Below, piece after piece: positions 19,935-39,406 of a stretch of 64,000 nucleotides of DNA (positions are counted from its first letter, which is position 1; the number at the start of each line of letters is the position of its first letter). The stretch comes from Candidatus Woesearchaeota archaeon (lineage in GTDB: Archaea > Nanobdellota > Nanobdellia > Woesearchaeales > GW2011-AR4). The position numbers were made by a program, and so were the translations under genes. The stretch covers positions 133,242 to 197,241 of the forward strand of contig JACOZN010000010.1 in assembly GCA_016181305.1 (NCBI GenBank). The letters run 5' to 3'. The notes under the pieces are model-generated. The model was not told where the DNA came from. It did not search any database and was given only the letters and a program-made list of their open reading frames with translations.

Positions 19935-19984
19935 CTATTCGGTTCCGCAACATTTAAATAGGAGTTATGTATATATTGTCTTAA

Positions 19985-20042
19985 CTAACCAGTTATAATA
20001 ATAATTTGTCATTTTATGATGAAATTATCACTAACTGGTTAG
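19985..20042. promoter_or_regulatory. perfect 11-bp inverted repeat (ctaaccagtta ... taactggttag) separated by 36 bp, about 70 bp upstream of trmB-like gene 20110. Candidate operator.
   Basis: Read directly from the sequence. A cccct/agggg hairpin immediately precedes the G-rich RBS. Confidence 0.45.
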
Positions 20043-20109
20043 AAATAACAACATTTTAATAGTAGTGCTTTTTATCCCCTAAGCAATAATAAAAGGGGGG
20101 TGTGTTTAA

Positions 20110-20928: not shown

Positions 20929-21001
20929 TTTCTTTTTTTATTCTCTTATTATTCATTTTTAATACAAAAATATAAAAAACAGCACTAATTCTACGTAGCT
21001 T

Positions 21002-26181: not shown

Positions 26182-27021
26182 ATGGTTAAAGTTGGGGTAT
26201 TGGGGCATACGGGAAGATTAGGAAAACCTTTAGTTGAAATTCTTAAACATCATCCTTATGCAGAAATAGTTTATACTCATAGTACAAGTGAGCCCAGTAA
26301 AATAACTTTATCAGAATCCAAAGCTGAATTACTTTTCTCAGCTTTAGGGGAAGGAGCCAGTAAAGAATATGAACATGAATGGCGGGATATCAGGGTAATA
26401 GACCTTAGTATTGATCATAGATATCATCCAGAATGGACCTATGGTTTGCCTGAATTAAACAGGGGACAGATTAAAGGTGCGCAATATGTTGCAAATCCTG
26501 GATGCTATGCAACTTCTATAATCTTAGGATTAGCCCCTATTAAGCACAAAGTTAGTGAAGTGAGTATACAAGCCAATAGCGGCATTTCAGGAGCAGGTTT
26601 AGAAAAACAAGAAGAAGATAACTTCGGACCTTATAAAGAAGGACAATCTCATGAACAAATTCCAGAAATAGAAAGAAGTTTAGGGCTCCATGGTATTACA
26701 CTATTTCCGCAAAGACTGGACAACACGGATAGGGGCATTATCTCAACAATTTTTGCAAAAATTGAAGGCTCTGAAGATTTGTTAGAAATTTACCGGCAAT
26801 TTTATGCATCAGAATCTTTTGTTAGAGTGCAAAATCAGGATTACAAAATTGAAGTCAAAAAAGTAAATAGAACTAATTTCTGTGACATTAAAACTTATAG
26901 ATTTGGAGAGAGAATAACTGTTGTTTCCACATTAGACAACTTAATCAAAGGAGGTTCAGGACAGGCTGTGCAGAATTTTAACTTGATGTATGGTTTTGAT
27001 GAGACTCTTGGACTAGTTTGA
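26182..27021 (+). CDS. ArgC/LysY-family semialdehyde dehydrogenase (N-acetyl-gamma-glutamyl-phosphate reductase-like), short form
   Basis: ANPGCYATSIILGLAP active-site Cys motif, SGISGAG, and C-terminal DNLIKGGSGQAVQNFNLMYGF. Only 279 aa against about 340 typical. AT-rich codons. Confidence 0.6.
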   Translation: MVKVGVLGHTGRLGKPLVEILKHHPYAEIVYTHSTSEPSKITLSESKAELLFSALGEGASKEYEHEWRDIRVIDLSIDHRYHPEWTYGLPELNRGQIKGAQYVANPGCYATSIILGLAPIKHKVSEVSIQANSGISGAGLEKQEEDNFGPYKEGQSHEQIPEIERSLGLHGITLFPQRLDNTDRGIISTIFAKIEGSEDLLEIYRQFYASESFVRVQNQDYKIEVKKVNRTNFCDIKTYRFGERITVVSTLDNLIKGGSGQAVQNFNLMYGFDETLGLV

Positions 27022-27089
27022 TGCTATAACAAAAATAATTTTTCCCCGCAACCTTTAAATACCCCTCCATCTTACCCAACTCCCTGAAA

Positions 27090-27188
27090 ATGATAAGAAA
27101 AGCTGAAAATTTGATGGCGAGGATTGGATTTGCTTTCTACAGGCTTTTTTCCAGCTTCAGGTATTTCTTTTTTTATTTTAAGCACTGA
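27090..27188 (+). CDS. candidate Phe/Tyr-rich leader peptide (MIRKAENLMARIGFAFYRLFSSFRYFFFYFKH)
   Basis: 32 codons, below the ORF-track cutoff. 9 Phe and 3 Tyr in the last 19 residues. A TATA-like tttaaata lies about 35 nt upstream. The ORF is 70 nt upstream of the DAHP synthase start. Confidence 0.35.
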   Translation: MIRKAENLMARIGFAFYRLFSSFRYFFFYFKH

Positions 27189-27258
27189 TTGGCTTCTTTA
27201 TCAACAGAACGCTAATCCCATTGTCTAAACATGATAAAAAACTAAACAAGGTGAGAAA

Positions 27259-28272
27259 ATGATTGTAGTGATGAAAAAGAATGCAACCGAAAACCAGGTG
27301 CAAAGAGTGGTTGAGAAGATACAGGAAAGCGGCTTGAAAGCGCACCTGTCGAAAGGAGATATAGTGACAATAATAGGGATTATAGGCGATGAAAGGAAAG
27401 TCCCGGAGTCGCAGATAAGGGCGATAGAGGGTGTGGAGAAGATTATGCCTGTGCTCGCCCCCTACAAGCTTGCAAGCAGGGACTTCAAGCCCGATAACAC
27501 AATAATAAGCGTTGACGGGGTCAAAATCGGCGGCAATGAGGTTGTTGTGATGGCAGGCCCCTGCTCTGTTGAAAGCAGGGAGCAGATTATAGAAACTGCT
27601 AAAGCCATAAAAAAATCAGGGGCAAAAGTATTAAGAGGCGGCGCATTCAAGCCAAGAACATCGCCTTATTCCTTCCAGGGCTTGGGAGAGGAAGGGTTAA
27701 AATTGCTGAAGCATGCAAAGGAGGAAACAGGCATGCCGATAGTAACAGAGGTAATGGACACCAGAAACGTGCCTTTGGTGTGCAAGTATGCTGACATCCT
27801 GCAGCTTGGCGCAAGAAACATGCAGAATTATGACTTATTAAAGGAAGTCGGAAGGTGCAAGCGCCCTGTTTTATTAAAAAGAGGGCTTTCAGCTACAATA
27901 ACAGAATGGCTCATGAGCGCAGAATACATAATGTCAGAGGGCAACCATAACATAATTTTGTGCGAGCGTGGCATAAGGACATTTGAAACTCTTACAAGAA
28001 ACACTCTGGACCTGAATGCAGTGCCTGCTGTAAAGGAGCTAACACATTTGCCGGTTATAGTCGACCCAAGCCATGGGACTGGAAAGTATACTTTGGTCAG
28101 CCCGATGGCTAAAGCTGCAGTTGCCGCAGGAGCAGACGGGCTATTAATTGAAGTCCATACAAATCCTGAAAAATCAGTCAGCGATGCCGACCAAACCATA
28201 AGCACAAAAAGATTTGAGAATCTCATGAGAGAGCTAAAGCTTATAGCAAGCGCAATAGGAAGAAAGGTGTAA
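27259..28272 (+). CDS. aroG: 3-deoxy-7-phosphoheptulonate (DAHP) synthase, type I-beta with an N-terminal ferredoxin-like regulatory domain
   Basis: KDO8P/DAHP synthase core with GPCSVES, KPRTSPYSFQG and DPSHG. The N-terminal extension of about 80 aa resembles the Thermotoga-type allosteric domain. Confidence 0.85.
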   Translation: MIVVMKKNATENQVQRVVEKIQESGLKAHLSKGDIVTIIGIIGDERKVPESQIRAIEGVEKIMPVLAPYKLASRDFKPDNTIISVDGVKIGGNEVVVMAGPCSVESREQIIETAKAIKKSGAKVLRGGAFKPRTSPYSFQGLGEEGLKLLKHAKEETGMPIVTEVMDTRNVPLVCKYADILQLGARNMQNYDLLKEVGRCKRPVLLKRGLSATITEWLMSAEYIMSEGNHNIILCERGIRTFETLTRNTLDLNAVPAVKELTHLPVIVDPSHGTGKYTLVSPMAKAAVAAGADGLLIEVHTNPEKSVSDADQTISTKRFENLMRELKLIASAIGRKV

Positions 28273-28273
28273 G

Positions 28274-29362
28274 ATGGAAGTTGTAAAAGTTGATTTGAGG
28301 GAAGAGATAGACAACTCTTATGATATCACCATCGGCAGGGGCTTATTGGAAGGCCTTGCCATGGAACTAAAAAAAAATCCCGCAAATAAGTTTGTGATAA
28401 TAACGGACTCCAATATTGCAGGAACCTATGGCAAAAGGCTCCTTAACGATTTGAAGAAGAGGAATATTGGCGCACATTTGATAAATTTTCCCGCAGGAGA
28501 GAAAAGCAAGACAAGAAAAACAAAAGAAAAGATAGAAAATGAAATGCTTAAGCTTGCTTTAGGAAGGGATGCCTGCATCATTTCTCTTGGAGGCGGTGTT
28601 GCAGGGGATATTGCCGGGTTTGCAGCGGCAACCTACATGAGGGGAATTCCGTACATTCAGGTGCCTACAACCTTGCTTGCAATGGTTGACAGCTCCATAG
28701 GGGGAAAAGTTGCCGTTGATACTATGCATGCAAAAAACGCAATAGGCTCATTCTACCAGCCAAAAAAAGTTGTCGTTGACCTGAATTTCCTTAAAACACT
28801 GCCAAAAAAAGAGTTGGTGAACGGGCTGGCAGAGCTGATAAAGCATGCCCTGATAAAAGACAGGGGTTTTTTCCATTTTATAGAAAAAAACATCGGCGGG
28901 ATTCTGGCCTGTGATGCGGACATTTTGAAGACTGCGATAAAAAGGAGCTGCGAGATTAAAGCGGATATTGTGATGCAGGATGAAAAGGAAAAAGGAATTA
29001 GAAGAATCCTCAACTACGGGCATACAATCGGGCACGCTATTGAATCCTCATTGGGCTACAAAATAAGCCACGGCAATGCTATTGCCATTGGAATGGGCTA
29101 TGCTGCAAAGCTTTCCGCCAAGCTTGGTTTTCTGCATGAAGGCTCTGTTATAAGGCAGAATAACCTGCTGGAATACATAGGACTGCCGCATAAGTTAAGC
29201 CATCACAAGCTAAAGCCCAGGAAGATACTTGAGCATATACAATACGATAAAAAAATAACGAACGGCAGAATAAATTTTGTATTGCTGAATTCCATAGGAG
29301 ATGCATTTGTCTCTGATGATGTCGCGATAGAAGACATTAAAAATATTCTTGAAGAACGATAA
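28274..29362 (+). CDS. aroB: 3-dehydroquinate synthase
   Basis: GGGVAGDIAGFAAATYMRGIPYIQVPTTLLAMVDSSIGGK motif block. Confidence 0.9.
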   Translation: MEVVKVDLREEIDNSYDITIGRGLLEGLAMELKKNPANKFVIITDSNIAGTYGKRLLNDLKKRNIGAHLINFPAGEKSKTRKTKEKIENEMLKLALGRDACIISLGGGVAGDIAGFAAATYMRGIPYIQVPTTLLAMVDSSIGGKVAVDTMHAKNAIGSFYQPKKVVVDLNFLKTLPKKELVNGLAELIKHALIKDRGFFHFIEKNIGGILACDADILKTAIKRSCEIKADIVMQDEKEKGIRRILNYGHTIGHAIESSLGYKISHGNAIAIGMGYAAKLSAKLGFLHEGSVIRQNNLLEYIGLPHKLSHHKLKPRKILEHIQYDKKITNGRINFVLLNSIGDAFVSDDVAIEDIKNILEER

Positions 29363-29363
29363 A

Positions 29364-30827
29364 ATGCTGGCAGCTGTAATAACAGAACTCAAAGACATTC
29401 CAAAAGCAAAAGATGCCGATTTGATAGAGCTGAGGCTGGATTATATAAAAGGATTGAATAATACAAAGCTAAAAAGCTTGATAGAAAACTGCAAGAAACC
29501 TGTAATTGTGACGAATAGGAAAAAGGGCGAAGGCGGCCTCTTTAATGGAAGCGAGGCAAAAAGAATTGAAATATTAAAAAATGCTATTAAATTTGGTGCA
29601 GGCTATGCTGATATTGAATATTCTTCAGGTAAAGAATCTATAAGAAATTTAATCCAAAATAAAAGGAAAACAAAGATAATTGTCTCTTACCATAATTTTA
29701 AAGAAACGCCGGCAAATATCAAAAAGATCTACGGCAATATCAAGAAATTAAATCCTGACTTGATCAAAATAGCCACTAATGCGCGCTCTGTCACTGACAA
29801 CTTCAGGGTATTCGGCTTAATCGGGAAAGCGAATAAAGAGAAAAGGAAAATAATTGCTTTCTGCATGGGAGGCTATGGAAAATTCAGCAGAATCTTAAGC
29901 ATAATTCTCGGCTCGCAGGTAACTTATGCGTCAACCGGCAAAGGAAAAGAATCCGCAGGCGGGCAATTAACAATGAATGAGATGGTTGAGCATTATAGAA
30001 TTAAAAAAATAAATAAAAACACTAAAATTGTCGGCTTGATAGGAAATCCCGTTGAACATTCCTGGTCGCATATAATGCATAATGCCGCTTTTGATAGATT
30101 AGACATTAATGCAGTTTATCTGAAATTTCAGGCAGATAAGCTGAAAGAGTTTATTGAACACATGAAAAATCTGGATATAATCGGCTTTAGCGTCACAATC
30201 CCGCATAAAGTTGAAGTTATGAGATATCTTGATGAGATAGACAAACAAGCGAAGGGGATTAGCGCAGTCAATACTATTGTTGTGAAAAACGGCAGATTAA
30301 TTGGGTACAATACAGACTGCCCGGGAGCCATAAAATCATTGAAGCGAATAACAGAATTAAAAGGAAAGAATGCTGTTGTCTTAGGTGCAGGCGGGGCAGC
30401 AAGGGCAATAATTTATGGTTTGATGGAGAATAAATCAAATGTTAAGATATTGAACAGGACTGCTGAAAAAGCAAAATTATTAGCTGATTATTTCAAGTGC
30501 GATTATGGCTCTTTAGATGATATTAAAAAAACTGATTATGATATTCTAATTAATACCACCCCTGCCGGAATGCACCCGCACATAGGCGGCTCCCCTGTTC
30601 CGCCCGACTGCATCAAAAACGGCGCTGTTGTTTTTGACATGGTTTTTAACCCTTACAAGACAAAATTGCTTGTTGAAGCTGAAAAGAGGAATTGCAGAAT
30701 AATTGCCGGGTTTGAGATGCTGATTCACGGGGCTCTGCTGCAATTCAAGCTATGGACCGGAAAAGAAGCCCCAGAGCGATTAATGCGGCTAAAAGTTATG
30801 GAGTTTTTAAAAAATGCTGGCCATTAA
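29364..30827 (+). CDS. bifunctional 3-dehydroquinate dehydratase (type I) / shikimate 5-dehydrogenase fusion
   Basis: N-terminal half has the type-I DHQase architecture. C-terminal half has the SDH motifs GLIGNPVEHSWS and GAGGAARA. The ATG at 29364 follows the aroB stop; the track start at 29349 is TTG. Confidence 0.85.
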   Translation: MLAAVITELKDIPKAKDADLIELRLDYIKGLNNTKLKSLIENCKKPVIVTNRKKGEGGLFNGSEAKRIEILKNAIKFGAGYADIEYSSGKESIRNLIQNKRKTKIIVSYHNFKETPANIKKIYGNIKKLNPDLIKIATNARSVTDNFRVFGLIGKANKEKRKIIAFCMGGYGKFSRILSIILGSQVTYASTGKGKESAGGQLTMNEMVEHYRIKKINKNTKIVGLIGNPVEHSWSHIMHNAAFDRLDINAVYLKFQADKLKEFIEHMKNLDIIGFSVTIPHKVEVMRYLDEIDKQAKGISAVNTIVVKNGRLIGYNTDCPGAIKSLKRITELKGKNAVVLGAGGAARAIIYGLMENKSNVKILNRTAEKAKLLADYFKCDYGSLDDIKKTDYDILINTTPAGMHPHIGGSPVPPDCIKNGAVVFDMVFNPYKTKLLVEAEKRNCRIIAGFEMLIHGALLQFKLWTGKEAPERLMRLKVMEFLKNAGH

Positions 30828-32070
30828 AACAAAAAAATATGTCAAAGCTGTGATTGAAGCGCCGCCATCAAAAAGCTATACCCAGAGGGCTTTGGTGATT
30901 GCAGCTCTTGCCAACGGCAAATCAGTTATAAAAAACCCGTTATTCAGCGACGACACCTGCCATATGATTTCTGCGTTGAAAGCGTTTGGGGCAAGGATAG
31001 AGAGAAAAGGCAGCAGCCTTGCTGTTTACGGAACAAACGGAAAGCTCAAGCAGCCAAAAGGCAGGATTTTTGCAGGGAATGCAGGCACGACAATGCGGTT
31101 CATAACAGCTTTTGCCTCCCTTGCTGACGGGGCTTCTGTAATAACAGGAGACAAGAGGATGCAGCAACGTCCAATAAACGACCTGCTTGATGCACTGCGG
31201 CAATTAGGGGTGAAAAGCGAAAGCAGCAGCGGATGCCCGCCTGTAAAGATTTACGGGGGAAATTTTATCGGCGGAACTGCGAAATTAAAAGGCAGCATAA
31301 GCAGCCAGTATTTATCATCCATTCTTATGGTTGCGCCATACGCCGAAAAGGATGTAAAAATAAGCATTACGGGGAACCTGGCATCAAAGCCGTATGTTGA
31401 CATAACCATAGATGTCATGAAGAATTTTGGAGTTGACATAAAAAATGTAAAATATGAAAAATTTATAATAAAAAACACCAAAAAATACAAATCTGGGGAT
31501 TATGCTGTTGAGGGCGACGCCTCGAGCGCGAGCTACTTCTTTGCAGCAGCTGCCGTGACAAAAGGAAGAATAATGGTAAAGAATATAAACCCCAAATCAA
31601 AACAGGGAGATATAAAGTTTGTTGACATACTAAAAAGAATGGGGTGTGGCGTAAGGAATGGAAACAGCTTTATCGAGGTGCAGGGTGGCAGCCTCAAAGG
31701 CGTTGATGTTGACATGAACGAGATGCCTGATATCGTGCCTACACTTGCTGTGACGGGCCTTTTTGCAGATTCGGCAACCACAATAAGAAATGTGCCCAAC
31801 CTGCGGCTGAAGGAGACTGACAGGCTTAGGGCCCTGGCGTTTGAACTTAGAAAGACAGGCGCCAATGTGGAAGAAATGCAGGACGGATTGCGTATAAAAA
31901 GAAGAAGGCTGCAAAAAGCGATAATTGAAACTTATAATGACCACAGGATGGCAATGAGCTTTGCCGTAGCGGGCTTGGTTATCAATGGGATAAGGATAAA
32001 AAACCCAGGCTGCGTTGCAAAATCATTTCCTGATTTTTGGGAAAAATTCAACGAGATGTATAAAAGATGA
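30814..32070 (+). CDS. aroA: 3-phosphoshikimate 1-carboxyvinyltransferase (EPSP synthase)
   Basis: PPSKSYTQRAL, GNAGTTMRF and RMAMSFAVAG motifs. Confidence 0.9.
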   Translation: MLAIKTKKYVKAVIEAPPSKSYTQRALVIAALANGKSVIKNPLFSDDTCHMISALKAFGARIERKGSSLAVYGTNGKLKQPKGRIFAGNAGTTMRFITAFASLADGASVITGDKRMQQRPINDLLDALRQLGVKSESSSGCPPVKIYGGNFIGGTAKLKGSISSQYLSSILMVAPYAEKDVKISITGNLASKPYVDITIDVMKNFGVDIKNVKYEKFIIKNTKKYKSGDYAVEGDASSASYFFAAAAVTKGRIMVKNINPKSKQGDIKFVDILKRMGCGVRNGNSFIEVQGGSLKGVDVDMNEMPDIVPTLAVTGLFADSATTIRNVPNLRLKETDRLRALAFELRKTGANVEEMQDGLRIKRRRLQKAIIETYNDHRMAMSFAVAGLVINGIRIKNPGCVAKSFPDFWEKFNEMYKR

Positions 32071-32576
32071 ATATAGCGCTTATAGGCTTCAGGGGAACTG
32101 GCAAAACAACCTTATGCAGGCTGCTTGCCAACAGGCTCGACAGGAAGCTCATATCAACAGACGAGGAAATAGAGAAGAGAACAAAAATGAGCATAGCCAA
32201 GTTTGTGAAAAAATACGGCTGGGAGAGGTTCAGGGAAATCGAGGCCGATGTTATAGAAAGCATCAGCGACTTTGATGACTGTGTGTTTGACACGGGCGGA
32301 GGCATTATAATGAGGAATGAGAATATTATCAACCTGAAAAAAAACACTTTGATTGTGCTGCTGACTGCTGATATAAAGACAATAACAAGCAGGCTCAAAA
32401 ACAATAAAAGGCCTGCACTGACGAAAAGCAATTACCTTGACGAGATAAAGGATGTACTGAAGGAGCGCGAGGAAAGGTACAAAACAGCAGCGGATTATGC
32501 CATTGACACGTCAAGGCTGGCTCCTGAAGAGGCATGCGATTTGATTATGCACTATGTGCAGATGGAGATGCAATAA
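32067..32576 (+). CDS. aroK: shikimate kinase, bacterial AroK/AroL (P-loop NMP-kinase) type
   Basis: GFRGTGKTT Walker A and about 170 aa. This is not the GHMP-type shikimate kinase typical of archaea. Confidence 0.8.
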   Translation: MNIALIGFRGTGKTTLCRLLANRLDRKLISTDEEIEKRTKMSIAKFVKKYGWERFREIEADVIESISDFDDCVFDTGGGIIMRNENIINLKKNTLIVLLTADIKTITSRLKNNKRPALTKSNYLDEIKDVLKEREERYKTAADYAIDTSRLAPEEACDLIMHYVQMEMQ

Positions 32577-32578
32577 AA

Positions 32579-33661
32579 ATGTCCAATTCTTTCGGAACAC
32601 TGTTCAGGATAACAACATGGGGCGAGAGCCACGGAAAGGCGATCGGGGTTGTAGTAGACGGATGCCCTGCCGGGCTTGAGCTGGGCGGAGAAGATGTGCA
32701 GAGAGAGCTTGATAAAAGGGCGCCGGGGCAGAGCGAGGTAACGAGCCCGAGAAAAGAGGCTGACAAAGCTGAGATTCTTTCAGGAGTATTTGAAGGCAAG
32801 ACCACAGGAACCCCCATATCAATGGTTATCTGCAACAAAGATGCAGATTCCTCAAAATATGAAAAAATAAAGCACTTGCTGAGGCCGGGGCATGCAGACT
32901 TCACTTACCAGGTTAAATACGGCTTTAGGGATTACAGGGGCGGGGGAAGAAGCTCTGCGAGGGAAACAGCTGCAAGGGTCGCTGCCGGCGCGATTGCAAA
33001 AAAACTGCTTGCAAAGCATGGGATAACCATCATCGCTTATGTCAGGGAAATTGCAGGCATAAAGGCTACTAAAATAGACTTTAAGGAGGTTTACAAAAAT
33101 GATGTTAGGTGCCCTGACAGGAATGCAGCAAAAAAGATGGAGCATGCTATCCTTAAGGCTAAAAACAGCGGAGATTCTGTCGGAGGCATCTGCGAAATTA
33201 TAGCGTTAAATGCGCCTGCAGGCTTGGGCAAGCCCATCTACAACAAGCTGGAGTCCGACTTGGGTTCTGCAATACTGGGCATTAATGCTGTGAAAGGCGT
33301 CGAGTTTGGCGCCGGATTTGAACTTGCAAAGATGAAAGGCAGCCGATCAAATGACGAGTTCATTGTAAAAAACAATAAGATCACCACTAAAACCAACAAT
33401 CACGGAGGCATTCTTGGCGGGATTTCCACAGGCATGCCTATTGTAATAAGGGCAGTTGTAAAGCCTGCATCCAGCATATTAAAGAAGCAGCATACAATCA
33501 ACTACAAAACTATGAAGCAGGAGACAATCTCGGTGGAAGGCAGGCACGACCCCGCAACTATTGTGAGGTTTCCGCCTATAGCAGAAGCAATGGCTGCAAT
33601 TGTGCTGGCAGACCACATGCTGATGGCGGGAAAGATAAATCCTGACAAGCTTATAAAGTGA
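32579..33661 (+). CDS. aroC: chorismate synthase
   Basis: MSNSFGTLFRITTWGESHG start. The track ORF begins at an upstream in-frame ATG (32534) that overlaps aroK. Confidence 0.9.
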   Translation: MSNSFGTLFRITTWGESHGKAIGVVVDGCPAGLELGGEDVQRELDKRAPGQSEVTSPRKEADKAEILSGVFEGKTTGTPISMVICNKDADSSKYEKIKHLLRPGHADFTYQVKYGFRDYRGGGRSSARETAARVAAGAIAKKLLAKHGITIIAYVREIAGIKATKIDFKEVYKNDVRCPDRNAAKKMEHAILKAKNSGDSVGGICEIIALNAPAGLGKPIYNKLESDLGSAILGINAVKGVEFGAGFELAKMKGSRSNDEFIVKNNKITTKTNNHGGILGGISTGMPIVIRAVVKPASSILKKQHTINYKTMKQETISVEGRHDPATIVRFPPIAEAMAAIVLADHMLMAGKINPDKLIK

Positions 33662-34497
33662 TTTCTATGGTTACGGTAGGCATAATCGGCGGCACCGGGC
33701 AGATGGGGCAGTTTTTCAGGAGATTTTTTGAGAAGAACAAATGCAGGGTTTTGATTGCCTCGAGAAAAACAAAATTAAAGCCGGAAGACTGCGCAAGGCA
33801 AAGCGATGTTGTTTTGGTTTCTGTGCCGATGGATGTGACTGTGGGAGTAATCAAAAAAATAGCCAGTTGCATCAGCAAGAATTCCCTGCTGATTGATACA
33901 ACCTCCATTAAAAACGAGCCTGTCAAAGCCATGCTTAAGCATGCAAAATGCGAAGTTATAGGGATGCACCCTGTTTTTGGGCCGAATGTAAATTCATTGA
34001 GGAGCCAGACTGTTGTTTTGTGCCCGGCAAGAACAAAAAAATGGCTGCAGTGGCTGAAAGGCATTTTCGAGAGAAATGGCGCAAGGGTGAAATTATCAAC
34101 TCCTGAAAAGCATGACGAGATGATGTCTGTAATACAGGGCTTAAATCACTTCAGCACCTTAAGCGTTGCCCATGCCATGAAGATGCTTGGCATAAGCGTG
34201 AAAGAAAGCCTGGAATACACAAGCCCGGTTTACAGGCTTAGGATGGCTATGGTCGGCAGGATATTAAAACAGGACCCAAACCTGTACGCAAGCATAGAGA
34301 TGATGAATCCAAAAAACAAAGATGTGCTAAAAGCTTATGCAGAATCCTCAAAAAAGCTCAGGAGTATAATTGAAACAAAAGACACAAAGGCATTTTTGGA
34401 GTATTTTAACGAGTGCTCTAAGTTTTTTGGCGGCTTTAAAGAAGAGGCTGAGGAATTAAGCGATTACCTGATAGGGCAGATGGTGAAAAGGAAATGA
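33658..34497 (+). CDS. tyrA: prephenate dehydrogenase
   Basis: GIIGGTGQMG Rossmann motif and a PDH fold. The track start is GTG; the ATG at 33667 is also possible. Confidence 0.8.
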   Translation: MISMVTVGIIGGTGQMGQFFRRFFEKNKCRVLIASRKTKLKPEDCARQSDVVLVSVPMDVTVGVIKKIASCISKNSLLIDTTSIKNEPVKAMLKHAKCEVIGMHPVFGPNVNSLRSQTVVLCPARTKKWLQWLKGIFERNGARVKLSTPEKHDEMMSVIQGLNHFSTLSVAHAMKMLGISVKESLEYTSPVYRLRMAMVGRILKQDPNLYASIEMMNPKNKDVLKAYAESSKKLRSIIETKDTKAFLEYFNECSKFFGGFKEEAEELSDYLIGQMVKRK

Positions 34498-35303
34498 AAA
34501 TAGCAACCCTTGGCCCGGAAGGCACTTTCAGCCACGAGGCTGCCATGAAGTATGATAGGAAGGCATCAATAATTTTTACAGATACAATAAGGGACGTGTT
34601 TGAAGCAGTTTCAAAAAATAAGGCTGACTGCGGAATTGCACCAATTGAAAACTCCATTGCAGGAACCGTTGGGCAAACTCTGGATTACCTAATGGAGTTC
34701 GGGCTTAAAACAAAGGCAGAGGAAATACTTCCGATAAGGCATAACCTTGCGGGGTTCGGAAAAATTAACGGAATAAAAATAGTTTACCTGCATCCGCAGA
34801 CTTATGAGCAGTGCGAGATTTTTATCAAAAGAAACCTTCCCAAGGCTGAAGTACTGCAGACGTCAAGCAACGGGAAATCAGCTGAAATGCTCGCCAAATC
34901 AAAATCAAAGGAAGATGCTGCCATAATACCCAAAATTGCTGCTGATATATACGGGCTTAAGATTCTGAAAAAGGATGTGCAGGATGCAAAGTTCAACGTT
35001 ACAAGGTTCTTTGTGATTGCAAAGAGCGACAGCAAAAAAACCGGCTATGACAGGACTAGCATAGCACTATATCCCCAGGTTGACAGGCCCGGACTGCTTT
35101 ACGAGATGCTTGGCGAGTTTGCAAAAAGAAAGATTAACCTGACAAAAATTGAGTCAAGGCCTTCGAAAGGCAAGCTCGGCGACTATATCTTTTACATAGA
35201 CTTTGAAGGGCATAAATCAGAAAAGCACATAGGAGAAGCCCTGAAACAGCTTGAGAAATCCGCGTTTGTAGCAGTGCTTGGCAGCTACCAGAGAAAGTAT
35301 TAA
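34494..35303 (+). CDS. pheA: prephenate dehydratase with a C-terminal ACT domain
   Basis: GPEGTFSHEAA start, TRF and ESRP motifs, and an ACT domain. Confidence 0.85.
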   Translation: MKIATLGPEGTFSHEAAMKYDRKASIIFTDTIRDVFEAVSKNKADCGIAPIENSIAGTVGQTLDYLMEFGLKTKAEEILPIRHNLAGFGKINGIKIVYLHPQTYEQCEIFIKRNLPKAEVLQTSSNGKSAEMLAKSKSKEDAAIIPKIAADIYGLKILKKDVQDAKFNVTRFFVIAKSDSKKTGYDRTSIALYPQVDRPGLLYEMLGEFAKRKINLTKIESRPSKGKLGDYIFYIDFEGHKSEKHIGEALKQLEKSAFVAVLGSYQRKY

Positions 35304-35318
35304 AATAACTTCGATAAA

Positions 35319-36206
35319 ATGCCGAAAAATGAATTAGATGAATTATCTGAGGAAGAAAAGAAGCTGGAAGCCTATTGGAACGAGGTTCTTATCAATTTAA
35401 AAGATCGAAATGGCAGAATAGATCTTGGTTATATATGGACTGATGAAGTAAAAAAAGGTTTTGAAGGAATCAAAAAAGAATTAGGGAAGATTACTTTTAT
35501 TCTTGGAAAATTGCATGTACATTACAAAACAGATAAAAAAAAGTATAATAAAGAAATTAATGATATTAGAAATTTGCTTCGGTATATTAGCAAAATAAAA
35601 CCTACAGCTGAATGGGTTAAACAAGTTCTTATTGATTTGCAACAAATCGTATCGGATGTTGAAAGTGAAAAATTAGGAAAGATAGCTTTAAATATTTCTT
35701 ATAAATTAGGACGAGAACTGATAAGAAATTTTTTCCCAGACATACCTTCGCATCGTATTTTTGTACATATATTTTTTGTGGAAGAGTCAAAAGAAATTCC
35801 AGGTTGGTTTACTCAAAAAGATCCTCTGGGGTATACAGTTACTGGACCTATGCCAATGTCTCTGATTAAACTAAATAACTATGAATCTATCTTAAAAGGC
35901 TTACTTGGACATGAATTTTCTCATATTGTGTTGGGGCATAATGACGGACTTAGGAATAGAGTATATGGATTTTTTTCTAAAAGATTTAGGCTATTTGGTA
36001 GTAGAATTACAGGAGCAACTATAGGAGCAATGGAAAAAGCAGCTGATAAAGAAACAATAAGAAGAGGTCTTGGGAAAGAGTTATACCAAAGTACTGCATA
36101 TTTCGAAAGTTTAGCAAAACAATACGGAAAAGAAAAAGAGAGGTATCAAAGTGGTCGCGTAGGCTATACTAGCGAACAAATAAAAGCATTAATTAATGAA
36201 AAATAA
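35319..36206 (+). CDS. hypothetical HExxH zinc-metalloprotease-like protein
   Basis: LLGHEFSHIVLGH motif. AT-rich codons. It sits between pheA and pheS. Confidence 0.45.
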   Translation: MPKNELDELSEEEKKLEAYWNEVLINLKDRNGRIDLGYIWTDEVKKGFEGIKKELGKITFILGKLHVHYKTDKKKYNKEINDIRNLLRYISKIKPTAEWVKQVLIDLQQIVSDVESEKLGKIALNISYKLGRELIRNFFPDIPSHRIFVHIFFVEESKEIPGWFTQKDPLGYTVTGPMPMSLIKLNNYESILKGLLGHEFSHIVLGHNDGLRNRVYGFFSKRFRLFGSRITGATIGAMEKAADKETIRRGLGKELYQSTAYFESLAKQYGKEKERYQSGRVGYTSEQIKALINEK

Positions 36207-36217
36207 TTGTATATAAA

Positions 36218-37738
36218 ATGGACATCAAGAAACTGGCAGAAAGCCTGAATCCAGCCGAGAGAAAAGTTGTGAAGATTCTTGATAATTTCAGCTCTTTCCA
36301 TGATATTGTGAAAGCTACAGGGCTTAAGGATGTCGAGGTTGCAAGGGCATTGCAGTGGCTCCAGAACAAGGGCGTCATAAGGCTAAAGGAAGAGCAGAAA
36401 GAGCTTGTTTCTCTTGATGAAAACGGCGGGAAATACCTGAAACATGGGTTGCCTGAAAAAAGGTTTTTGGAACTGCTGGAAAGGCCGGCTGGCATAGGCG
36501 AATTAAGGAAAAAAACCGGGCTAAGCGACGAGGAAATTTCAATATCGCTTGGAGTCTTAAAATCAAAGGCCGCTATTGAGATACAAAAGGGCAAGAATAT
36601 TATTGTGTCGATAACAGACAACGGAAGGCATCTGCTGAAGAAAGGCTTTATTGAAGAGCAATTTCTCAAAGAGAATTTTCCAAGAGATGCAGCATCCCTT
36701 AATGAAGAGGAAAGATTCGTGCTCGGGAATCTAAGAAAAAGAAAAAGGATAGTAAAGGTTGAGCTGACAAAGATTGTAGATGCAGGGCTTACTGAGATAG
36801 GCAAGAGATTATTAAAAGAAAAGCTTGAAGAAGGCTTAATAGAAAAAATAACTCCGTCTTTAATAAAAACAGGCGCCTGGAAAAACAAAAAATTCAGAAG
36901 GTTTGATGTAAAGGTCAATGTCCCTTCAATTTTTGCAGGGAGAAAGCAGCACTACAGGAGATTTCTCGAAGAGGTTAGGCAGAAATTTGTTGCCCTTGGA
37001 TTCAAGGAAATGACCGGGCCTGTTGTTGAAAGCGATTTCTGGGATATGGATGCACTGTACATGCCGCAGTTCCATTCGGCAAGGGACATCCACCAGGGCT
37101 ATTACATAAAAGAGCCGAAATACGCCAAGGATTTGCCTGAGAATGCTGTTAAGAATGTAAAAGCTGCTCATGAAAACGGCTTTGGGACCGGAAGCAGGGG
37201 CTGGCGATATGATTTTGACGTGAAAAAAACCCGCAGGCACATCCTAAGGACTCATGACACATCAATATCAGCAAGAACTCTGGCTTCAAGGGAGCTAAAA
37301 ATTCCAGGCAAATATTTCCAGGTTGCAAGATGCTTCAGGTATGATGTGATTGACGCAACACACCTGCCTGACTTCAACCAGGTGGGGGGATTTGTGATAG
37401 AGGATGGCATGAATTTCGGGCACTTAAAGGCCCTGCTGAAGCTCTTTGCAAAGGAGTTTGCAGAAACAGAGGAAGTAAGGGTAAAGCCGAGCTATTTTCC
37501 GTTTACGGAGCCGAGCGCTGAGCTGCAGGCAAAGCACCCCGAGATGGGGTGGATAGAGCTTGCAGGAGCAGGCATTTTCCGTCCGGAATTGGTCAAGCCA
37601 TTGGTTGGAAAAGAAGTGCCTGTTATTGCGTGGGGAGTGGGGCTTGACAGGCTGGCAATGTTCAAGCTCGGAATAAAAGACATAAGACAATTATTTTCAC
37701 ATGACCTGGAGTTTTTAAGAAATGCAAAAGTAGTCTGA
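36218..37738 (+). CDS. pheS: phenylalanyl-tRNA synthetase alpha subunit (archaeal type with N-terminal winged-helix domains)
   Basis: Class-II motifs FRYD, GAGIFRPE and GVGLDRLAM. Confidence 0.9.
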   Translation: MDIKKLAESLNPAERKVVKILDNFSSFHDIVKATGLKDVEVARALQWLQNKGVIRLKEEQKELVSLDENGGKYLKHGLPEKRFLELLERPAGIGELRKKTGLSDEEISISLGVLKSKAAIEIQKGKNIIVSITDNGRHLLKKGFIEEQFLKENFPRDAASLNEEERFVLGNLRKRKRIVKVELTKIVDAGLTEIGKRLLKEKLEEGLIEKITPSLIKTGAWKNKKFRRFDVKVNVPSIFAGRKQHYRRFLEEVRQKFVALGFKEMTGPVVESDFWDMDALYMPQFHSARDIHQGYYIKEPKYAKDLPENAVKNVKAAHENGFGTGSRGWRYDFDVKKTRRHILRTHDTSISARTLASRELKIPGKYFQVARCFRYDVIDATHLPDFNQVGGFVIEDGMNFGHLKALLKLFAKEFAETEEVRVKPSYFPFTEPSAELQAKHPEMGWIELAGAGIFRPELVKPLVGKEVPVIAWGVGLDRLAMFKLGIKDIRQLFSHDLEFLRNAKVV

Positions 37739-37750
37739 ATAACAGATAAA

Positions 37751-39406
37751 ATGCCGACTATAACCTTTTCACTGAAAGATTTGCAGCGTTTGGCAGGCAA
37801 AAAACTGGAGATTGGGGAAGTCACAGAGCTTGCGCATTACGGAAAGGGCGATGTTGACAGCTATGACAAGGAAACTGATGAAGTGAAAATTGATTTTGGA
37901 GACACTAACCTGCCTTATTTGTGGAGCGCAGAGGGATTTGCACGATTGATAAAGGGAATACTCGGAATGCAAAAGGGTGTTCCTGAAATAAAGCTGCAAA
38001 AAGGCGACTATCGGGTCATTGTTGACAAGTCTGTTGCAGAAATACGGCCTTTCATTGCCTGCTTTGCGGCAAAGGGCAGGAAGATTGACGACTATCTGCT
38101 TAAGCAGCTTGTGCAGCTGCAGGAGAAGTTCTGCGAAACTTACGGAAGAAGAAGGCAGAAGGTTTCAATCGGACTGTATTCCTACAAAAGGCTCGCTTTT
38201 CCTGTGTATTACAAGGCTATTTCTCCTTCAATCGAGTTTGTGCCTTTGGAGTTCAAGGCAAAAATGAGCCTGAAAGAGATACTTGCAGAGCACCCAAAGG
38301 GAAAAGAGTACGCATGGATTCTTGAGGGATTTGACAAATATCCTGTGCTTATTGACAACAAAAACGAGATGATGAGCTTTATACCGATAATCAACTCAAA
38401 TTTTACAGGAAAGCTTGAAATTGGGGACGAGAACCTGTTTTTTGAGGCCACCGGAACGGATGAGGAAGCTGTTAACCTGGCTGCAAACATTTTTGCCTAT
38501 GCCCTGTCTGACAGGGAATTTAACATTTATTCCGCAGAGGTAAAATATCCCGGCAGAAAGGCTGTTGCCCCATGCCTGAAAATCGAGAGCATTCACATAA
38601 AGAATGAGCAGATAAAATGGTTATTTGGATTGGAACTTAAAGAGAATGAAGTAAAGCATCTTCTTGAAAAGGCGCAGTATAATTATAGCGATTATAAAGT
38701 TGAGATTCCGCCTTACAGGCAGGACATAATGCACCCTTTTGATGTTATAGAGGATATCGGGATTATGTATGGGTATGATAATGTAAAAGAGCTTCCATTA
38801 ACTACCTATACAACAGGCTCTGCGTTGAAGGGTAAAGAGTTTATTGACAAAGTAAGGGAAATTATAGTCGGCTTGGGCTACCAGGAAATTATGAGTGCAG
38901 TGCTGACTAATAAGGATTTTCTGTATAAAAAAATGAATATCGGGGATTTTGGGACTATTGAAATTGAGGACTGCATGTCGGAGAACTACTCTGCTGTGAG
39001 GAGCTGGATTCTTCCAAATTTGATGGAGGTTTTCTCAAAGAACAAGCATGTAGAGTTTCCGCAGAAAATCTTTGAGGAAGGCATTGTCAATGTGAGAAAA
39101 AGCGGGGAAATTGCTGATTTTAACAGGATTGCGATTGCGAGCTCCCATGAGAATTCAAACTACACGGAAATGAGGCAGGTGCTTGATTACATAATGAAAT
39201 GCTTTGGGCTCAAGTGCGACATTGAGGAGGCAGAGCACGGCTCTTTCATTGAGGGAAGATGCGGAAGGGCAATTGTCCATGGAAAGAAAATTGCTTATCT
39301 GGGGGAAATAAACCTGCAAGTTCTGGAAAACTGGAATTTGGATATGCCGGTTGCTGCTATGGAACTGAATTTGAGCGAAATGTTTGAGATAATTAAAAAT
39401 AAATAA
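37751..39406 (+). CDS. pheT: phenylalanyl-tRNA synthetase beta subunit (archaeal type)
   Basis: B3/B4 and B5 domains. Archaeal PheT N-terminus MPTITFSLKDLQRL. Confidence 0.9.
   Translation: MPTITFSLKDLQRLAGKKLEIGEVTELAHYGKGDVDSYDKETDEVKIDFGDTNLPYLWSAEGFARLIKGILGMQKGVPEIKLQKGDYRVIVDKSVAEIRPFIACFAAKGRKIDDYLLKQLVQLQEKFCETYGRRRQKVSIGLYSYKRLAFPVYYKAISPSIEFVPLEFKAKMSLKEILAEHPKGKEYAWILEGFDKYPVLIDNKNEMMSFIPIINSNFTGKLEIGDENLFFEATGTDEEAVNLAANIFAYALSDREFNIYSAEVKYPGRKAVAPCLKIESIHIKNEQIKWLFGLELKENEVKHLLEKAQYNYSDYKVEIPPYRQDIMHPFDVIEDIGIMYGYDNVKELPLTTYTTGSALKGKEFIDKVREIIVGLGYQEIMSAVLTNKDFLYKKMNIGDFGTIEIEDCMSENYSAVRSWILPNLMEVFSKNKHVEFPQKIFEEGIVNVRKSGEIADFNRIAIASSHENSNYTEMRQVLDYIMKCFGLKCDIEEAEHGSFIEGRCGRAIVHGKKIAYLGEINLQVLENWNLDMPVAAMELNLSEMFEIIKNK

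Follow-up and report, generated by a model that had tools for sequence, protein, structure and literature searches.

A conserved phenylalanine- and tyrosine-rich leader ORF at the head of the aro-pheST cluster of a Woesearchaeota archaeon, a candidate cis-acting sensor of aromatic amino acids

A short open reading frame (ORF) rich in phenylalanine and tyrosine codons precedes aroG, the gene of 3-deoxy-D-arabino-heptulosonate 7-phosphate (DAHP) synthase, in a 64,000-nucleotide stretch of DNA from a Candidatus Woesearchaeota archaeon (GenBank assembly GCA_016181305.1, contig JACOZN010000010.1, positions 133,242 to 197,241), hereafter called the window. Comparison with related loci shows that this leader is, as judged from its sequence evolution, a conserved, coding, aromatic-rich first cistron, which is probably leaderless. 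It is very probable that the leader works in cis as an aromatic amino-acid sensor of some kind. The best explanation overall, held with a confidence slightly short of even, is that a ribosome translating this leader would report to the aro-tyrA-pheA-pheST operon how much charged tRNA-Phe and tRNA-Tyr is available. The features on which the argument turns are the following (window coordinates).

27046..27061, + strand: archaeal promoter, a B recognition element (BRE)-like CCGCAACC followed by the TATA box TTTAAATA (27054-27061), conserved in relatives
27090..27188, + strand: leader ORF of 32 codons, MIRKAENLMARIGFAFYRLFSSFRYFFFYFKH, from the ORF list and its translation; start probably leaderless, with a 5' untranslated region (UTR) of about 0-5 nt
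27129..27164, + strand: first aromatic cluster, codons 14-25 (F14, F16, Y17, F20, F23, Y25), its columns conserved in 17-18 of 18 distinct peptides
27165..27179, + strand: terminal aromatic run FFFYF, codons 26-30, two codons ahead of the stop, kept in the distant homologue at locus L176
27187..27217, + strand: hairpin P1, from minimum-free-energy and centroid folds, with a 5' arm GAUUGGCUUCU, whose first nucleotide is the second one of the UGA stop codon, and a 3' arm AGAA-C-GCUAAUC
27218..27247, + strand: conserved A-rich box CCATTGTCTAAACATGATAAAAAACTAAAC with hairpin P2 (27219-27233) and a mini-ORF, from alignments; kept in locus L177
27231-27245, + strand: the mini-ORF within the box, four codons, ATG ATA AAA AAC TAA, read from the alignment
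27250..27261, + strand: Shine-Dalgarno (SD) sequence GGTGA (27250-27254) and ATG of aroG (27259), from the sequence and Pfam
27259..39406, + strand: presumed regulated unit aroG(FXD)-aroB-aroDE-aroA-aroK-aroC-tyrA-pheA(ACT)-ORF295(HExxH)-pheS-pheT, from Pfam and the ORF layout

The leader had been proposed in an earlier note on this DNA, and the 32-codon ORF is present where that note placed it, with exactly the translation given there. Its C-terminal 19 residues contain 8 Phe and 3 Tyr, 11 aromatics in all, and not the nine Phe and three Tyr (12) that had been counted. The note had also allowed that such a density might be common in AT-rich ORFs by chance. It can be seen that 11/19 is the top value among the 912 six-frame ORFs of at least 20 amino acids in the window, the runner-up value of 10/19 being reached by three ORFs, and that the leader is the sole ORF among 88 intergenic ones with 6 aromatics in a 7-residue window. 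The binomial probability per 19-residue window was 2.7e-8 under proteome composition and 4.6e-6 under intergenic base composition. By itself the aromatic composition is suggestive, not overwhelming, evidence for a real feature, and the leader is judged real because it is conserved in relatives rather than from its composition.

Related loci were obtained by a metagenome scan and from contigs carrying DAHP synthase homologues of 72-96% identity, and two further loci came from small-protein matches in a phmmer search of 1.84e9 proteins. This search returned only 4 tiny members of the family, a 49-aa read-through query matched only 2 called proteins, and the matches of an alignment-based contig scan were almost exclusively bacterial. 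In agreement with the expectation of the earlier note, the small ORF and its aromatic bias are kept upstream of orthologous DAHP synthase genes at 16 further archaeal loci, so that the leader is present in 17 distinct archaeal loci including the window. Its length is 31-34 codons, and the last 29 codons align without a gap over the 17 loci. In the leader frame the pooled synonymous difference (pS) was 0.70 and the nonsynonymous difference (pN) 0.12, which gives a pN/pS of 0.18, whereas the other two sense frames gave 1.3 and 1.7. In four of the five alternative frames pN/pS was 1.2-1.7; the fifth, the mirror antisense frame, gave 0.19 but has stops in 17 of 17 loci, and stops interrupt the antisense frames in 12-17 of the 17. 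Codon-position entropy was 25.6 at the third position against 10.1 at the first and 8.7 at the second. Substitutions were mostly synonymous, and K/R and I/L/V exchanges had arisen through multiple codon changes. Taken together, these values are a strong evolutionary signature of coding and point to an ORF that is translated and to a peptide under purifying selection. The peptide consensus is x(R/K)IENLMAQIGFAFYRLFSSF(K/R)YFFFYF(K/R)(Y/F/H), with 8% deviating cells in the aromatic consensus columns versus 21% in the rest. The gene context was readable in 17 cases, L177 and L178 among them, and there the family was seen solely at aro/phe loci. An antisense gene (27072-27185, minus strand) was considered as well and rejected (stops in 12 of 17 loci, pN/pS 1.6).

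More distant loci were informative about which parts of the leader are kept. At L176, where the DAHP synthase is 68% identical to that of the window, a TATA box is followed after 24 nt by the ATG of an ORF for the peptide MKPSVIGQMLAVLFPEFFLGKKFFYYFWYV. Its DNA reads TTC TTT TAT TAC TTT (FFYYF), and because this run, a CCATTGT motif and AAAAAACTAAACAA align with the window at the DNA level, we regard it as a diverged homologue that retains little beyond the terminal aromatic run; the N-terminal half of the leader is lost and the 3' box is kept. At L001 (DAHP synthase 68% identical) the ATG lies 22 nt from the TATA box and opens an unrelated 26-aa ORF at the same position, ending LAYSFYYFSY. 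No leader is present at L175 (69% identical), where the transketolase gene is followed by a gap of 116 nt and then by DAHP synthase. The order at L177 is GTPase, leader, shikimate kinase, phenylalanyl-tRNA synthetase (PheRS) alpha, a 62-aa ORF and PheRS beta: DAHP synthase and the other aro genes are lost, yet the leader, P1 and the box are kept. L177 is a natural deletion variant, and its layout indicates that the leader tracks the operon start and Phe-related genes, not DAHP synthase specifically. In two loci, L087 (2330-2495) and L165 (1850-1995), the leader box and the SD of the DAHP synthase gene are separated by a homologous insertion of some 150 nt. Six of its base pairs are changed on both sides, e.g. 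GUUGC-GAA-GCAAC versus GUUCC-GAA-GGAAC, and the insertion has no Rfam match; it resembles a structured RNA, perhaps akin to a riboswitch, arranged in tandem with the leader.

The TATA box TTTAAATA is invariant or almost so across the 17 aligned loci; the earlier note had recognised such a box, at about 27052 instead of 27054-27061. The arrangement CCGCAAC-N-TTTAAATA is kept upstream of the small ORF in related loci, and the motif GCAAC-N-TTTAWAT recurs at other promoters of the window. From the TATA box to the leader ATG the gap is 28 nt, and it is 22-33 nt at other first genes of the window that have no SD. Among the loci it was 20-33 nt in 17 of 18, the exception being L171 with 46 nt to the best TATA match. 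With this promoter geometry the small ORF looks like a leaderless first cistron of the operon. No TATA box was found at promoter distance upstream of 27259, the start of aroG; since aroG has an SD and lacks a TATA box of its own, it behaves as an internal cistron. The short ORF is thus placed as in an attenuation leader, between the sole promoter-like TATA box and the SD-led aroG, presumably on a shared transcript. The conserved box was rejected as a second aroG promoter, its TATA-like part putting the transcription start site (TSS) past the ATG and the window copy being without TATAAA. ATTGTCTWAAC was rejected as a repeated operator (4 matches with at most one mismatch versus 2.7 expected, not significant). 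A second copy of the promoter motif, CCGCAAC-A-TTTAAATA, occurs in window 19945-20045, in the 5' region of the gene of a TrmB-like regulator, where a perfect inverted repeat of 11 bp comes after it, CTAACCAGTTA (19985-19995) and TAACTGGTTAG (20032-20042).

Downstream of the terminal run the RNA is conserved in two parts. Every member of the main family has P1 overlapping its stop codon. The 7-bp core of this hairpin, GAUU(A/G)GC / GCUAAUC, is 97% paired in 15 loci; loop length and loop sequence vary. All of the single-side changes (8 of 8) lead to G.U pairs, which fits an RNA on the + strand, and one compensatory change was found, in L178, where G-C becomes A-U (UGA to UAA with C to U). Unrelated hairpins start 0-2 nt from the stop in L176 and L001, and the shared architecture is an aromatic run, 0 to 2 codons, the stop and a hairpin. 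A U5-U9 run comes after the post-stop hairpin in L173, L174 and L001. Within the box, P2 is 93% paired and shows no compensatory changes. The spacer from the leader to the SD ranges from 70 to 229 nt across loci. As to the mini-ORF in the box, an ATG with an in-frame stop 4-5 codons on is found in 13 of 15 main-family loci, the differences being synonymous or conservative (ATA/ATC/ATT, AAA/AGG, CTA/TTA); where the spacer is short, this stop comes a few nucleotides ahead of the aroG SD. The codons of Ile12 and Gly13 (GAUUGG, 27120-27127) are complementary to the P1 3' arm (27211-27217). The helix between codons 11-13 and this arm is 93% paired in 12 loci and shows no covariation; these codons could be an alternative partner of the P1 3' arm, or the match could be a coincidence.

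Known bacterial-type elements were not recognised in this RNA. At gathering threshold no Rfam family matched the window, with only noise (E > 1) in 26950-27350, and none matched L001, L173, L174, L176 or the bacterial leader loci described below; with E up to 1 none matched L086, L087, L165 or L167. A scan for bacterial-type terminators gave 0 sites in 26500-27700. The fold of the whole leader is not unusually stable (z = +0.2 and -0.3), and folding yields one AU-rich hairpin, P1, with no demonstrable 1:2/2:3/3:4 alternative hairpins. Sequestration of the SD by the U-run was rejected: RNAduplex gave -9.9 kcal/mol for the last nine leader codons against the aroG initiation region, and 60 initiation regions of the window gave a mean of -9.4 with a standard deviation of 2.6 kcal/mol. 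A ribosome-dependent SD switch found no support: 17 leaders were folded by partition function with a ribosome footprint masking codons 14-17, codons 27-30 or the stop, and SD/AUG accessibility did not change consistently. Because the duplex energy is ordinary, the footprints have no consistent effect and the spacer is variable, SD sequestration of the ermC or cat type is unsupported. Two further pairings were rejected. The long-range pairing UUUACUUU:AAGGUGA proposed by RNAalifold has only A-U and G.U pairs and no double changes, is weaker in the window (UAU) and is taken to be an artefact of U-rich and purine-rich sequence. An anti-SD 'UCUCAUU' of the box, opposite GGUGAGA, is not conserved, having mismatches in the window and in L082 and L169.

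The nucleotides of the FFFYF run form the tract T3-C-T7-A-T4 (27164-27179), with the T7 at 27168-27174. A 13-mer of the leader, TTTCTTTTTTTAT, is identical to 20929-20941, directly after the stop of the TrmB-like gene, and gene ends in the window are trailed by T5-T7 runs; from this identity and these runs, the Phe run appears indistinguishable from the terminators of this genome. Inside the genes of the window, runs of at least T7 on the sense strand number 11 versus 76 runs of at least A7, seven times rarer, and one such T run lies in the 12-kb aro-pheST cluster. The codon choice of the FFF run (TTC TTT TTT) is no more frozen than that of other Phe codons across loci, and TTT is the preferred Phe codon (60%), so the tract gives no independent evidence of selection for T7 at the nucleotide level. 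Archaeal termination relies on U-tracts, and the termination factor FttA (aCPSF1) binds nascent RNA that is rich in U; its footprint on the terminator covers -1 to -36, and a steric competition with the coupled ribosome has been proposed (PMC11616081; PMC8716108). U-tract terminators within archaeal operons tune downstream expression (PMC10450193).

The failure of SD sequestration, the absence of a bacterial-type terminator and the literature on archaeal U-tracts and FttA together favour masking by the ribosome. That the ribosome masks the U-tract and P1, with higher expression on scarcity, is a tentative reading with somewhat less than even chances. In this scheme transcription would start about 25 nt past the TATA box, and the mRNA would begin at the leader AUG or a few bases before it. 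The ribosome would then have to decode 11 Phe/Tyr codons in 17, the last five of which lie two codons before the UGA within P1, and the FFFYF codons would double as a U7-containing tract of the gene-end type. When Phe- or Tyr-tRNA is scarce, the ribosome would dwell on the terminal run and cover the U-tract RNA and the P1 5' arm. It would thereby block U-tract-dependent termination or cleavage (intrinsic or by aCPSF1/FttA, which needs single-stranded U-rich nascent RNA) and also keep P1 unfolded, and RNA polymerase would proceed into aroG. When the tRNAs are plentiful, the ribosome would clear the run and be released at the UGA, the U-tract would be exposed and P1 would fold; in such replete cells the polymerase would be uncoupled across the 70-nt untranslated spacer, and more transcripts would be terminated or cut. 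In its most specific form the proposal is that of the first archaeal amino-acid-sensing leader-peptide attenuator, a hairpin-independent one, in which the sensor codons UUC-UUU-UUU-UAU-UUU are themselves the U-tract signal and ribosome occupancy together with the stop-overlapping hairpin decides on intrinsic or aCPSF1/FttA termination. This form is possible and rather unlikely.

Several points weigh against masking and against a simple codon-counting leader. First, the sign: on starvation the ribosome should stall first at F14-Y25, which should leave the U-tract naked and the polymerase uncoupled and give more termination. The earlier note had supposed that ribosome pausing modulates read-through at the oligo-T; the T7 is indeed terminator-like, but the simplest coupling logic gives the wrong sign for such a modulation. 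Secondly, the timing: FttA is thought to act with U-rich RNA 30-36 nt behind the polymerase, so that a tightly coupled ribosome would cover the tract in replete cells too. Thirdly, the tract itself: the idea of that note that the oligo-T is a termination signal holds for the resemblance of T7 to the terminators of this genome, and fails where a tract of at least T5 is absent, in 2 of the 17 loci (L087, through a synonymous TTC, and L174), and in L176 and L001, whose aromatic runs have at most T4 (T5 occurs elsewhere in both leader regions). Furthermore, aCPSF1/FttA is not encoded in the 64-kb window, the rest of the genome not having been searched. The covariation of P1 is weak, its observed value being attained by 58 of 500 shuffles, and the window copy of P1 has no U-run behind it. 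The conserved stop-overlapping hairpin and the conserved box downstream of it are both absent from the earlier note. It had also expected the non-aromatic codons to drift, whereas within the main family E6, I12 and G13 are (nearly) invariant and N7 is likewise conserved. A codon counter needs none of these, and the invariance of E6, I12 and G13 hints at constraints beyond codon counting. Finally, we infer the TSS, the translation and the 3' ends of the leader unit, all three, from the DNA.

An alternative with the opposite sign or a different coupling seems improbable. Here a ribosome slowed at codons 14-25 would lag behind the polymerase, the U-tract would be exposed and termination would follow; operon expression would need efficient Phe/Tyr decoding, as in a translation-coupling checkpoint, or the true switch would lie elsewhere. 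In the geometry of the expressome, known from bacterial structures, a ribosome touching a polymerase paused at T7 sits at about codon 17, and six conserved aromatic codons lie ahead of the terminal run, both of which suit this alternative. So does the hypothesis that FttA acts on uncoupled polymerases (PMC11616081). On the other hand, it would make little sense physiologically for a biosynthetic operon to be under positive feed-forward, the adjacency of run, stop and hairpin in three divergent leader types would be left unexplained, and the known bacterial counterparts pheL, pheM and aroR all raise expression on starvation (PMC11802643).

A trans-acting micro-protein encoded by the first gene of the operon, such as a membrane or interfacial peptide or the partner of an enzyme from the operon, with structural aromatics, is a little less probable again. 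The clear purifying selection at the protein level, the conserved non-aromatic residues and the normal first-gene promoter geometry would all be expected of it. However, Arg and Lys interrupt the hydrophobic stretch and leave no standard transmembrane helix, the family is confined to aro/phe loci in the 17 loci with readable context, and aromatic-rich upstream ORFs (uORFs) without homology to it occupy the same position in L001 and in bacteria. It is also the terminal run that is kept while the remainder diverges, and the ORF is trailed by a stop-overlapping hairpin and a long conserved untranslated spacer.

It has slim chances as well that the leader is a nascent-peptide arrest sensor of the TnaC, SecM or ErmCL type, in which the peptide in the exit tunnel would stall the ribosome near the stop, perhaps on free Phe or Tyr, and so control P1 and the downstream RNA. 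Selection acts on the peptide sequence and not on codons alone (pN/pS 0.18), E6, I12 and G13 keep an ungapped distance to the stop in the 17 loci, and the stop codon sits within a conserved hairpin. Yet L176 and L001 are without the N-terminal motif and have the aromatic run, the extreme enrichment in end-product codons is typical of codon-sensing leaders and unneeded for arrest, and the conservation of I12-G13 could equally stem from pairing with the P1 3' arm.

The least credible alternative is a chance ORF in AT-rich intergenic DNA, covering a promoter, terminator or 5' UTR element that is rich in T: T-rich sequence does read as Phe in one frame and other window ORFs reach 10/19, but the frame-specific substitution pattern, with pN/pS 0.18 versus 1.2-1.7 in four frames and stops in the mirror frame of all 17 loci, the ORF staying open and ungapped in 17 loci with highly divergent synonymous sites, and the K/R and I/L/V exchanges by multiple codon changes, effectively refutes it.

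Leader-peptide attenuation is a textbook case of regulation through coupled transcription and translation. Archaea also couple the two processes, with a eukaryote-like polymerase, hairpin-independent U-tract terminators and the CPSF73-like FttA. To our knowledge, amino-acid-sensing leader peptides have not been described in archaea, and attenuation is known only from bacteria. The earlier note had likewise been aware of no archaeal precedent, and none turned up in the literature searched: full-text searches on archaeal leader peptides and attenuation returned only bacterial cases and no amino-acid-responsive archaeal example. Archaeal ribosome-profiling papers call small ORFs in 5' UTRs 'reminiscent' of bacterial leader peptides, and nothing further.

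Counterparts of the leader stand before the homologous gene in bacteria. Nearly all of the remaining fetched loci were bacterial, and nine of them have uORFs with at least 6 aromatics in 7 residues upstream of the homologous DAHP synthase gene. Six bacterial ones (L050, L026, L070, L039, L074 and L044; from Geobacter, Geomonas, Syntrophia-like and clostridial sources) were examined, L127 and L143/L144 being the others; a strong hairpin follows each of the six, and a U-run follows in 5 of 6. These F/Y/W-rich leaders (e.g. MKTNRFYIAFSFYFWFGFYFRPSARVVV; several end ..CPSLR..) are classical attenuators like pheL, pheM and aroR (PMC11802643). They have in common with the archaeal locus the enzyme family (FXD + DAHP_synth_1, DAHP synthase 55-63% identical), the position and uORFs of 20-32 codons. 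In contrast to the archaeal locus, they have strong GC hairpins with U6-U9 tails of the intrinsic-terminator type, their aromatic run is followed by 5-10 more codons (e.g. ...CPSLRRM), and their peptides have no sequence similarity to the archaeal one.

The likeness to pheL-pheA and pheM-pheST of E. coli (the Phe_leader class of Rfam) consists in a short ORF dense in Phe codons 5' of Phe biosynthesis or PheRS genes. The unit in the window holds both pheA and pheST, L177 is leader-aroK-pheST, and the presumed readout in common is the speed of the ribosome on cognate codons. Unlike pheL and pheM, the leader has an archaeal host, a TATA/BRE promoter and a leaderless ORF, 31-34 codons instead of 14-15, Phe and Tyr mixed, no GC-rich terminator hairpin with U-run and no Rfam match, and its regulatory run abuts the stop codon, with the U-tract inside the ORF. 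In Corynebacterium glutamicum the aroR-aroF attenuator has a Phe-Tyr-Phe leader and responds to Phe limitation with higher expression (Neshat et al. 2014, relayed in PMC11802643). Like the window leader, aroR lies directly upstream of a DAHP synthase operon; it differs in being bacterial and based on a hairpin terminator, with an unrelated peptide (PMC11802643). The T7 + T4 tract, of the gene-end type and lying between promoter and structural genes, resembles archaeal U-tract/aCPSF1/FttA terminators, but the known internal ones are constitutive and intergenic, whereas the tract in the window consists of sense codons of a conserved ORF (PMC8716108, PMC11616081, PMC10450193). Being made of sense codons in a translated ORF, it could have termination gated by ribosome occupancy. 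With TnaC, SecM and ErmCL the leader would share a conserved peptide at a fixed distance from the stop and a stop-proximal event that would control the downstream RNA; unlike it, those peptides are not enriched in pathway-product codons.

In kind, then, the leader would belong with the leader-peptide control of Phe/Tyr genes as in pheL, pheM and aroR; what would be new is the domain of life, the promoter and leaderless start, the lack of a hairpin terminator, the run-at-stop architecture and a U-tract built of sensor codons. The evidence throughout is the comparison of sequences from uncultured organisms. Should the hairpin-independent attenuator reading be true, it would be a direct regulatory use of transcription-translation coupling in an archaeon. 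With its roughly 200 conserved nucleotides, the locus is a compact system in which to ask whether an archaeal ribosome can instruct the polymerase or a termination factor, and by what means. It also points to regulation in cis of the bacterial-like shikimate operons found in DPANN archaea. Other archaeal biosynthetic operons could be screened for the same order of elements, namely a TATA box, a leaderless uORF rich in the codons of one amino acid, a stop-overlapping hairpin and an SD-led gene.

The genes of the presumed regulated unit are co-directional and tightly packed over about 12 kb. Pfam recognised DAHP synthase with an FXD N-domain and DAHP_synth_1, dehydroquinate synthase, a fusion of dehydroquinase and shikimate dehydrogenase, enolpyruvylshikimate-phosphate synthase, shikimate kinase, chorismate synthase, prephenate dehydrogenase and prephenate dehydratase-ACT. 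The FXD domain is a regulatory one. The earlier note's description of the downstream genes as the whole Phe/Tyr pathway was slightly overstated: eight pathway genes are there by Pfam, and the scans recognised no chorismate mutase and identified no aminotransferase anywhere in the cluster. The genes of PheRS alpha and beta (window 36218-39406), absent from that note, close the cluster; as they come last behind aro, tyrA and pheA, a single leader may serve both Phe biosynthesis and Phe charging. Three minor features of the neighbourhood are the following.

35319-36206, + strand: ORF of 295 aa between pheA and pheS with a HEFSH (HExxH-type) motif, no match in Pfam or NCBIfam
26182-27021: argC-like gene adjoining the leader upstream, 279 aa versus about 345 in the model, below the NCBIfam cut-off
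27039..27043, + strand: T5 run 18 nt past the stop of the argC-like gene, comparable to the T5-T7 runs after other gene ends in the window

The contig carries the archaeal markers Orc1/Cdc6, PolD DP1 and DP2, SecY and a Pelota-like protein, from which it is genuinely archaeal. Bacterial homologues of the DAHP synthase (window 27259-28272), from Nitrospirota, Omnitrophota, Chloroflexota and Firmicutes, share 55-68% identity with it. This suggests that the aro operon has been transferred between domains, although the leader peptides of the two domains are unrelated. The T5 run is probably the terminator of the argC-like gene and separates the leader unit from upstream transcription. Further upstream genes are those of a TrmB-like regulator, a split transketolase, a transaldolase and a DRG-type GTPase. 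In most relatives the argC-like gene is missing at this place, and the DRG GTPase gene or another gene precedes the leader instead.

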